Translations under genes and position numbers: made by a program
IMG/VR virus record: IMGVR_UViG_2695420565_000003
DNA from: a virus
Lineage: Duplodnaviria; Heunggongvirae; Uroviricota; Caudoviricetes
DNA length: 27,343 bases
Strand: one strand, 5' to 3'
Notes under the pieces: model-generated
Told to the model about the DNA's origin: nothing
What the model saw: only the letters and a program-made list of their open reading frames with translations
The model's database searches: none
Shown: positions 8,537 to 9,370 of the stretch, in pieces
How the letters are laid out: each line of letters opens with the position of its first letter
How positions within the stretch are numbered: the first letter of the stretch is position 1

Positions 8537-9370
8537 ATGAATATTACACAAGATAACTTAGATATTTTCACTGGATCACATGTTGAAGTGTCGATCTCTA
8601 ACCAGATAGACAATCAGGTCGACTTTTTCGATCCTAGCTTTAGTTCTATGGAGAACATCGCAGCATTCCCTACTCTAACCGAATCCACAGAGATAGAAAC
8701 TCTGGAAGAGTACGATCAGGACGCTACGGGGAAACTTGCTGGTTATCGTAGACTGGAACCGACAACACTCACATTAAACCGTGTTCTTGACGATGAACAT
8801 CAAGCAATGTTGATGAAAGCGGTAGAGGATAAAACACCTTTACGCTTCCGTATGTTCTATGTTGTGAACTCTGGCTATAGTGCTGCTAACACTGGTTACT
8901 ATGTCATCTATGACGCTTATGTCACTAGTCACAAAACCCGTGGCGCAGATAACAAAGCTGTAACACTGGAATTTAAACTTGAACCAGATGGCGGGATTCT
9001 AGCAAGGGGTATAGCGACCGAGGGAAAAATTCTGCGACAAGGGGATTATGGCGTAGGCTCAGGCGTTAGCCCATTCACCGGACCTATTGATAGTGAATCT
9101 CTGACAGGAAACCGCTTCGTAACCTACAAAGGAACGGCTAGCACTAACCCTTATGGTGCTGATACATCGTTAATTCATCTTCAAGCTAATGAGCATGGCG
9201 CATGGCAATTAACGTGTAATACTTCCGGTGCTCCACGTTTGCGGGTACGAAATATCCAGGAAAATGGGAAGTCGGAATGGATCAAGGTATATTCCACCAA
9301 TGAGAAACCAACGCCAGCCGAAATTGGCGCAGTGGCTAAGACTGACCGGATCGATTTCGGCGAATACTAA
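8537..9370 (+). CDS. Virion structural protein (277 aa) with a tail-fiber-type C-terminal motif; possible neck/collar or fiber-anchor protein
   Basis: RBS AAGGGGTAATA. The C-terminus 'YSTNEKPTPAEIGAVAKTD' is shared with the fiber protein ('YHEGDKPTPGEIGAYTKAE'). Confidence 0.5.
   Translation: MNITQDNLDIFTGSHVEVSISNQIDNQVDFFDPSFSSMENIAAFPTLTESTEIETLEEYDQDATGKLAGYRRLEPTTLTLNRVLDDEHQAMLMKAVEDKTPLRFRMFYVVNSGYSAANTGYYVIYDAYVTSHKTRGADNKAVTLEFKLEPDGGILARGIATEGKILRQGDYGVGSGVSPFTGPIDSESLTGNRFVTYKGTASTNPYGADTSLIHLQANEHGAWQLTCNTSGAPRLRVRNIQENGKSEWIKVYSTNEKPTPAEIGAVAKTDRIDFGEY

Follow-up and report, generated by a model that had tools for sequence, protein, structure and literature searches.

Among the late genes of an Escherichia coli prophage, a lambda-like siphovirus, is one for a 277-aa protein that looks like a copy of the tail tube protein (TTP) fused to a T4-type fiber-joining end-piece, so the protein probably anchors the adjacent long fiber to the tail. 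The arrangement that we consider probable is a tube-ring anchor, made of a duplicated TTP and a gp36-type connector, which mounts a T-even-type distal fiber on a lambda-like tail. This late-gene region was studied as a stretch of 27,343 nucleotides, referred to here as the window. In the original prediction, a 20-residue motif had been noticed in both the 277-aa protein and the neighboring fiber, and the protein was proposed to be a fiber-related collar or anchor rather than a simple tube component. The first part of this proposal is well supported, given that the C-terminal ~70 residues are gp36-like; the second has to be amended, as residues 1-163 make the protein a genuine TTP paralog as well.

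Reading from the capsid fusion gene, the window contains two small head-tail genes, the 277-aa gene, the fiber gene, the 157-aa TTP gene and the gene of a gp38-like adhesin (Table 1). Further 3' come the genes for assembly chaperones, the tape measure protein (809 aa), a distal tail protein resembling pb9, hub proteins and, after these, a gpJ-like tip with a C-terminal receptor-binding domain. The first of the two small ORFs before the tape measure gene weakly matches Phage_TAC_13 and the second starts with TTG; G/GT-type chaperone pairs are usually joined via a programmed frameshift. Among 5426 complete E. coli genomes, 54 match nt 7800-10400 at 80-96% identity, all of them in the chromosome, and the 277-aa protein is annotated by PGAP in E. 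coli genomes as 'hypothetical'. The locus of one lysogen, E. coli CE0007a (NZ_CP119011), is 96% identical.

Table 1. Coordinates of the features in the window around the tube-paralog fusion and its proposed partner fiber
Feature	Position (nt)	Strand	Residues, support or remark
Large terminase of gpA type and portal of the lambda family			5' of the region of interest
Prohead protease-capsid fusion	5630-7639		5' of the region of interest
140-aa protein	8105-8527		5' of the 277-aa gene
277-aa protein gene, TTP paralog fused to gp36-type C-terminal connector	8537..9370	+	ORF list
TTP domain	8537..9025	+	residues 1-163
Gly-rich linker (~164-190) and beta-sheet module (~190-249)	9026..9283	+	
Motif copy in 277-aa protein, KVYSTNEKPTPAEIGAVAKTD	9284..9346	+	residues 250-270
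Extreme C-terminal tail RIDFGEY, gp36-type end	9347..9367	+	residues 271-277
GC-rich hairpin followed by T-rich run, between 277-aa gene and fiber gene	9404..9421	+	RNA fold z=-4.15
1204-aa gp37-like long tail fiber gene	9453..13067	+	Gp34_trimer 658-756; Peptidase_S74 1091-1149
gp37-type N-terminus, proposed docking partner of gp36-type tail	9453..9605	+	fiber residues 1-51
Inserted Asn/Thr/Lys-rich repetitive shaft	9606..10319	+	fiber residues 52-289; absent from RB49 gp37
Motif copy in fiber, KMYHEGDKPTPGEIGAYTKAE	10551..10613	+	fiber residues 367-387
157-aa tail tube protein, probable major tube subunit	13125..13598	+	PF16460 Phage_TTP_11 E=1.8e-6; PHROG 158 E=6e-21
gp38-like tail fiber adhesin	13773..14279	+	Gp38_N E=3.9e-15; PHROG 1121 E=1.7e-34
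Small ORFs before tape measure gene	14325-14633 and 14642-15016		layout of G/GT-type chaperone pair
Distal tail protein	17464-18060		pb9-like

The N-terminal ~160 residues of the 277-aa protein have a tail-tube fold of the lambda gpV type, and residues 1-163 align with the 157-aa TTP of the window at 29% identity (BLASTP, E=1e-15). The protein also matches PHROG 158 'major tail protein' (E=5.2e-8); the Pfam scan returned no TTP match, and no family of any kind, at E<=1. These results could be read to mean that the 277-aa protein is itself the major tail tube protein, with a C-terminal part that is mere surface decoration and resembles fibers through a shared beta-sandwich fold. The TTP domain is indeed complete, C-terminal decoration domains are frequent on tube proteins (lambda gpV), and a hairpin follows the gene as it does the capsid gene (7774-7795) and the 157-aa TTP gene (13729-13753). 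The ribosome-binding site likewise resembles that of the 157-aa TTP gene. We tried these sites as a discriminator between major and minor tube proteins and abandoned them: both genes have the same AAGGGGTAA-type site, which is therefore uninformative on this question. The second TTP, however, occupies the canonical place directly 5' of the chaperone and tape-measure genes and has the better TTP-family scores, its match to PF16460 (28.2 bits) lying just below the cut-off of 28.4. Its orthologs in two related loci (L004 and L011) are 251 aa long, and the one in L004 adds a C-terminal domain, Ig-like in appearance; an extra domain of this kind, as in lambda gpV, marks the second TTP and not the 277-aa protein as the probable major tube subunit. 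Moreover, the extension carried by the 277-aa protein and its relatives ranges from 110 to >1000 residues of fiber shaft and ends, in every complete member, in a gp36-type tail, unlike decoration domains, and the long relatives pass the Pfam model Phage_T4_gp36. We thus consider it very unlikely that the protein is a decorated major tube subunit, as opposed to a duplicated TTP with a connector for a fiber.

An AF2 model of the 277-aa protein, built on a 35-sequence alignment, has a pLDDT <50 at residues 165-172 and of 75-89 over residues 190-270, with the five or so strands of the C-terminal beta-sheet module, which spans residues ~190-252, at 193-197, 210-218, 221-228, 235-241 and 249-251. 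The shared motif begins in the last of these strands ('KVY') and runs on as NEKPTPAEIGAV, with a short helix at 260-263; seven residues, RIDFGEY, then follow before the protein ends. Residues W248, K250 and P258 are invariant in a 21-sequence alignment of the family, as are D273 and G275 in 35 family members. Residues 199-270 match tail-fiber PHROGs; a profile search with the C-terminal module for homologous proteins gave only four fragments and no annotated fibers. Neither the C-terminal 117 residues nor the module profile nor RB49 gp36 had a significant relative in PDB sequence searches, the best phage-related match being the collar spike of Vibrio phage XM1 (7kjk) at a non-significant E of 0.35-0.46. 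Protocadherin matches in the same searches were set aside as noise.

The match between the C-terminus of the 277-aa protein and an internal segment of the fiber is present as the original prediction had described, which placed the two copies at about nt 9304-9340 and 10560-10600 (see Table 1 for the actual limits). The copies are identical at 11 of 21 residues, and BLASTP aligns residues 230-270 of the 277-aa protein with residues 346-387 of the fiber at 36% identity (E=3e-4 for the pair). When the 277-aa protein was shuffled, 1 of 300 shuffles attained 11 of 21 in an ungapped 21-mer, and a loose regular expression of the motif core found just these two sites in the six frames of the window. 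Against the HMM built from the family's C-terminal modules, the fiber copy scores only 7.7 bits (i-E 0.12, 582 ORFs searched), so that the resemblance of the two segments is real but modest. The stretch of the fiber N-terminus that had been noted as a partial match, GKKPTPEQLSQGEIAL, did not survive as a third copy of the motif: BLASTP aligns only 'KPTP' (E=3.9), the module HMM finds no domain there, and these four residues are not conserved, their position reading RPDA in RB49 gp37 and RPAA in T4 gp37. It belongs instead to the conserved gp37-type N-terminus described below. HMM searches for fiber repeat families found no Pfam repeat family (e.g. Phage_fiber_2) at E<=1 in the 277-aa protein or in fiber residues 346-387.

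The same motif is present in T-even long-tail-fiber proteins, with three to four copies in RB49 gp36 (four sites by the loose pattern), one in RB49 gp37 and one in T4 gp36, near its N-terminus. The counterpart of the fiber copy in RB49 gp37 is KMYHEGDKPTPSELNVYSKQE, at about residue 150, and T4 gp34 has VFDGGNPPQPSDIGALP near its C-terminus. The motif was also found in some 200 fiber families, in many cases with several copies in one protein. By itself, the 20-residue motif is therefore ordinary, neither new nor surprising. Because it is a generic boundary motif that is repeated across many fiber proteins, it is unlikely to be the specific attachment determinant that it had been suggested to be. 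Two other shared elements are more specific, namely the extreme C-terminal tail of the 277-aa protein and the gp37-type N-terminus of the fiber.

This tail and the module before it connect the 277-aa protein to gp36. Residues 207-277 align end to end with residues 426-496 of RB49 gp36 (34% identity, E=6e-6), and the HMM of the C-terminal module matches RB49 gp36 with E=3e-12, the best domain covering gp36 residues 397-496. The RB49 gp36-like protein has 496 aa and ends in YQLYHEGNKPTPADVGAVPLNAVIDFGTF (tail ...AVIDFGTF); T4 gp36 ends in VIKDSVQDFGYY (...SVQDFGYY), with DFGYY in common with the tail pattern xIDFGx[YF]. With T4 gp36, the resemblance does not go beyond a single motif copy (7 bits) and the DFGxY tail. 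A last motif copy followed by [IVL]D[FLY]Gx[FY]-COOH, which we used to define a gp36-type end-piece, is found in the 277-aa protein. In the Pfam search, the 277-aa protein had no match to the core domain Phage_T4_gp36 (PF03903), and the N-terminus of gp36 (MADLKxGSxxGG...), the side that meets gp35, is absent from it, a tube domain standing there instead. The protein retains only the last ~70 residues of a gp36-like protein, consisting of the first module and the terminal element, and is therefore not itself a member of the Pfam gp36 family. Longer relatives make the gp36 relationship unambiguous. Residues 250-482 of the 482-aa relative P0078 match residues 229-496 of RB49 gp36 (E=1e-17), and the relatives P0084 and P0085 (1204-1209 aa) pass Phage_T4_gp36 with 28.8 and 32.0 bits at a cut-off of 26. 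[quoted passage not shown]

The fiber encoded next to the 277-aa protein supplies the other side of such a joint. It matches PHROG 1699 'long tail fiber distal subunit' (E=1.8e-148), and over nt 10320-12998 its gene shares ~80% identity with gene 37 of RB49-like phages. Fiber residues 1-51 align with residues 4-54 of RB49 gp37 at 37% identity (E=5e-11), and the same type of N-terminus is present in T4 gp37. The homology to RB49 gp37 halts at gp37 residue 54 and restarts at gp37 residue 71, which corresponds to fiber residue 290; the ~240 residues between the gp37-type N-terminus and the gp37 body are the inserted shaft (TVTANKTDADTKINNLTGTVSANKTAIE...), where Tandem Repeats Finder detected no tandem repeat at the DNA level. 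With a gp36-type end on one protein and a gp37-type fiber adjacent to it, the window encodes both halves of a gp36-gp37-type joint, the gp36 half being carried by a tube domain. The gp37-type N-terminus resembles the N-terminal anchor that is common on many fibers, and it is therefore not specific proof of a gp36-type joint.

We compared the window with 12 related loci from E. coli, Salmonella, Edwardsiella, Proteus, Serratia, Klebsiella, the phage record DCP80 and metagenomes, representing at least six genera in addition to the metagenomes. The order is constant among the 12: a pair of small genes comes first, followed by the tube-paralog fusion, the fiber gene or genes (one or two), accessory genes in some loci and the TTP gene, with the chaperone and tape-measure genes next wherever the fetched stretch extends that far, except in L014. 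A downstream protein with a gp37-type N-terminus is encoded in all 12, so that a gp36-type protein lies immediately 5' of such a fiber in these loci as in the window. The two genes are adjacent, and the co-occurrence of both termini is thus confounded by linkage and shared ancestry. In the locus from Proteus mirabilis (L010, 6882-9516), the fiber is split into two polypeptides, one of 198 aa that bears the gp37-type N-terminus and, after it, one of 675 aa; the points at which the fiber is divided therefore shift within the family.

Several other features of these loci deserve mention. In the window, the gene of the gp38-like adhesin is cut off from its presumed fiber by the intervening TTP gene, and the presence of such an adhesin together with a fiber that has a C-terminal Peptidase_S74 self-cleaving chaperone domain is an unusual combination. 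The Edwardsiella locus L009 has a 256-aa gp38 directly after the fiber, and L007 and L008 have three ~100-aa ORFs in place of gp38. At the left end of the DCP80 record (L001; PQ671644.1, Escherichia phage DCP80, nt 1-21560) there is a siphovirus-type head and tail module syntenic with the window, including a 699-aa tube-paralog/fiber fusion. This 141-kb record is classed as Straboviridae/Gaprivervirus, and its classification or assembly may be wrong. A hairpin of differing sequence is found between the fusion gene and the fiber gene at the same position in 11 of the 12 related loci, the spacer in L014 being just 9 nt. Among E. coli alleles, this spacer is 95-100% identical and the coding ends on both sides of it diverge. 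Possible roles of the hairpin are partial termination or control of mRNA stability, by which stoichiometry would be set.

To define the family more broadly, the C-terminal module profile was searched against 1.84 billion representatives, which gave 211 proteins at E<=1e-3. The best ~18 of the 211, with lengths of 278-1209 aa, have the module at about residues 162-275, right after a ~160-aa tube domain; in the rest, which are long fibers, the module lies inside the protein and is often present more than once. All complete TTP-fusion representatives end in [IVL]D[FLAEY]Gx[FYEIL]; one truncated chimera does not have the tail. Proteins bearing the module come from many Enterobacterales genera, nearly all of them annotated 'hypothetical'; the same annotation is given to each of the 275-281 aa homologs, found in prophages of E. 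coli, Salmonella, Providencia, Edwardsiella and Proteus. Annotation of this family, which is almost entirely labeled 'hypothetical protein', could thus be improved.

The suggestion in the original prediction that the shared motif is a trace of module exchange gains support from these comparisons. Family members differ from each other through in-frame loss or gain of segments between motif copies, and the 277-aa form equals a long form minus everything from the first to the last motif copy. In the E. coli allele L006, which has 91% protein identity, nucleotide identity drops to 48-65% exactly over nt 9268-9387, a mosaic patch that covers the motif and the tail, and the intergenic stretch just 3' of it is 100% identical. 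Globular domains with three five-stranded antiparallel sheets alternate with triple beta-helix in gp34 (PMC5537660). The position of the motif at the exit of the beta-sheet module appears to match this architecture, a structural reading by which the motif would be the conserved exit of a beta-sheet fiber module: the last strand 'KVY', then 'KPTPxEIGA'. Being repeated at module boundaries, it is a natural site of in-frame recombination, by which fiber segments are lengthened, shortened or swapped. Elsewhere in the window, ~240 nt at 25058-25298 (inside ORF 24929-25315) are 78-82% identical to a gene of T4-like phages, annotated there as 'minor head protein inhibitor of protease', and short stretches, apparently in the last ~4.4 kb, match Stx-converting phages at >=99%. 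Such matches are more evidence of exchange with T-even and lambdoid phages.

Exchange of this kind also raises the possibility that the motif is a recombination scar or generic fiber sequence without a role in joining, the fiber being attached elsewhere, for example at the tail tip or to the distal tail protein, and the stub on the tube paralog being the remnant of a longer fused fiber. The generic nature of the motif in about 200 fiber families, and also in gp34, gp36 and gp37, would agree with a scar, as would the mosaic patch over the motif and the short form that looks like a deletion derivative of longer forms. Yet the stub is kept at 275-281 aa across at least five genera with W248, K250, P258, D273 and G275 invariant, a pattern that speaks for purifying selection acting on the end-piece. 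All complete TTP-fusion representatives, of any length, retain the C-terminal tail, and the downstream fiber always has the gp37-type N-terminus. We consider it unlikely, on these grounds, that the end-piece is a leftover, and favor its use as the anchor point of the adjacent fiber.

We propose that the 277-aa protein is a duplicated TTP with a C-terminus that was replaced or extended by a T-even gp36-type connector. Within the tail, its tube domain would form a special ring, located either beside the distal tail protein, in the manner of T5 p140, or under the head-proximal end, as gene order would have it. The C-terminal modules would project outward and trimerise, six subunits giving two trimers, and the 1204-aa fiber next to them would dock with its gp37-type N-terminus on the terminal element ...KPTPxEIGAVxxxDxIDFGx[YF]-COOH, in a copy of the way in which gp36 and gp37 are joined in the distal half-fiber of T4. 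Together with the gp38-like adhesin, the gp37-like fiber may then form a host-recognition side fiber on an otherwise lambda-like tail. Counting against this proposal, a hexameric ring that carries trimeric fibers needs a symmetry solution.

The location of the ring is the only difference between this proposal and one in which the 277-aa protein is a neck or collar component, forming the uppermost tube ring under the terminator and bearing whisker-like fibers, as in T4 fibritin or collar spikes, instead of distal side fibers. Gene order usually mirrors the head-to-tip arrangement, and the 277-aa gene directly follows the pair of small head-tail joining genes and precedes that of the major TTP; this order was also the sole basis on which the original prediction had called it a 'neck-region' protein. 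The only near-match of the C-terminal module in the PDB is likewise a collar spike, that of XM1 mentioned above, although it is not significant. Against a neck position, the known siphophage anchors for receptor-binding side fibers (T5 and Ur-lambda) are at the distal end, and the gp37 body of the fiber with its accompanying gp38-like adhesin points to receptor binding. A neck component is a credible possibility that we do not favor, and we prefer a tube-ring anchor for a side fiber involved in host recognition.

Beyond this window, we lean, with some reserve, towards the view that Enterobacterales prophages with lambda-like tails have an undescribed third way of mounting side fibers. A TTP-gp36 fusion would plug a T-even distal half-fiber (gp37 and gp38-like adhesin) into the tube ring, and the break point between anchor and fiber would move freely, from 277+1204 up to 1209+490 aa, by recombination at KPTPxEIGA. 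In the literature searched, neither a tube-protein/gp36 fusion nor this type of prophage is described, an absence that is no proof of novelty. The anchoring of side fibers on non-contractile tails is structurally known for only a few phages. If a tube paralog does carry a fiber connector, it would represent a further anchoring solution and the reuse of a T-even joint on a siphovirus, as well as a natural portable adaptor with which T-even fibers could be grafted onto siphovirus tails. The gp36-type end-piece and gp37-type N-terminus would make a compact, apparently portable joint that could serve host-range engineering of temperate phages and tailocins.

Among known systems, the T4-type joint of the distal half-fiber shares with the window a gp36-type protein, to which the last ~70 residues of the 277-aa protein are homologous (RB49) and which has the DFGxY end in T4; the next gene with a gp37-type N-terminus and gp37 body; and a gp38-type adhesin. 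It differs in that gp36 has its own N-terminus (MADLKxGS..GG) and the Pfam gp36 core where the 277-aa protein has a tail tube domain. The T4-type joint also comes with gp34, gp35 and a knee, all missing from the window, and it belongs to a myovirus whereas the window is from a lambda-like siphovirus prophage. Compared with the T4-type system, the window fiber adds the ~240-residue inserted shaft and the S74 chaperone domain. In T5, p140 and p132 make up a special ring or collar that holds the side fibers (PMC10038345), and a tube-protein paralog exists besides the major tube protein, as in the window. The T5 collar protein p132 is, however, a separate Ig-like dodecamer that surrounds the undecorated p140 and anchors the L-shaped fibers pb1, whereas in the window the tube paralog itself bears the connector, by covalent fusion, and no p132-like Ig-like collar protein was detected in those ORFs of the window that were scanned with Pfam and PHROG. 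T5 tube proteins are tandem-domain trimers, in contrast to the single tube domain of the 277-aa protein.

In Ur-lambda, the Stf collar sits at the gpV/gpM junction (PMC12617516). The likeness to the window lies in a lambda-like tail with trimeric side fibers anchored at a ring of the tube, which for the window is our proposal. [quoted passage not shown] That distal parts of the lambda Stf fiber are related to T-even fibers has long been known. As for lambda gpV itself, the 277-aa protein has the same tube fold and the same order of domains, namely tube, linker and C-terminal beta domain. [quoted passage not shown]
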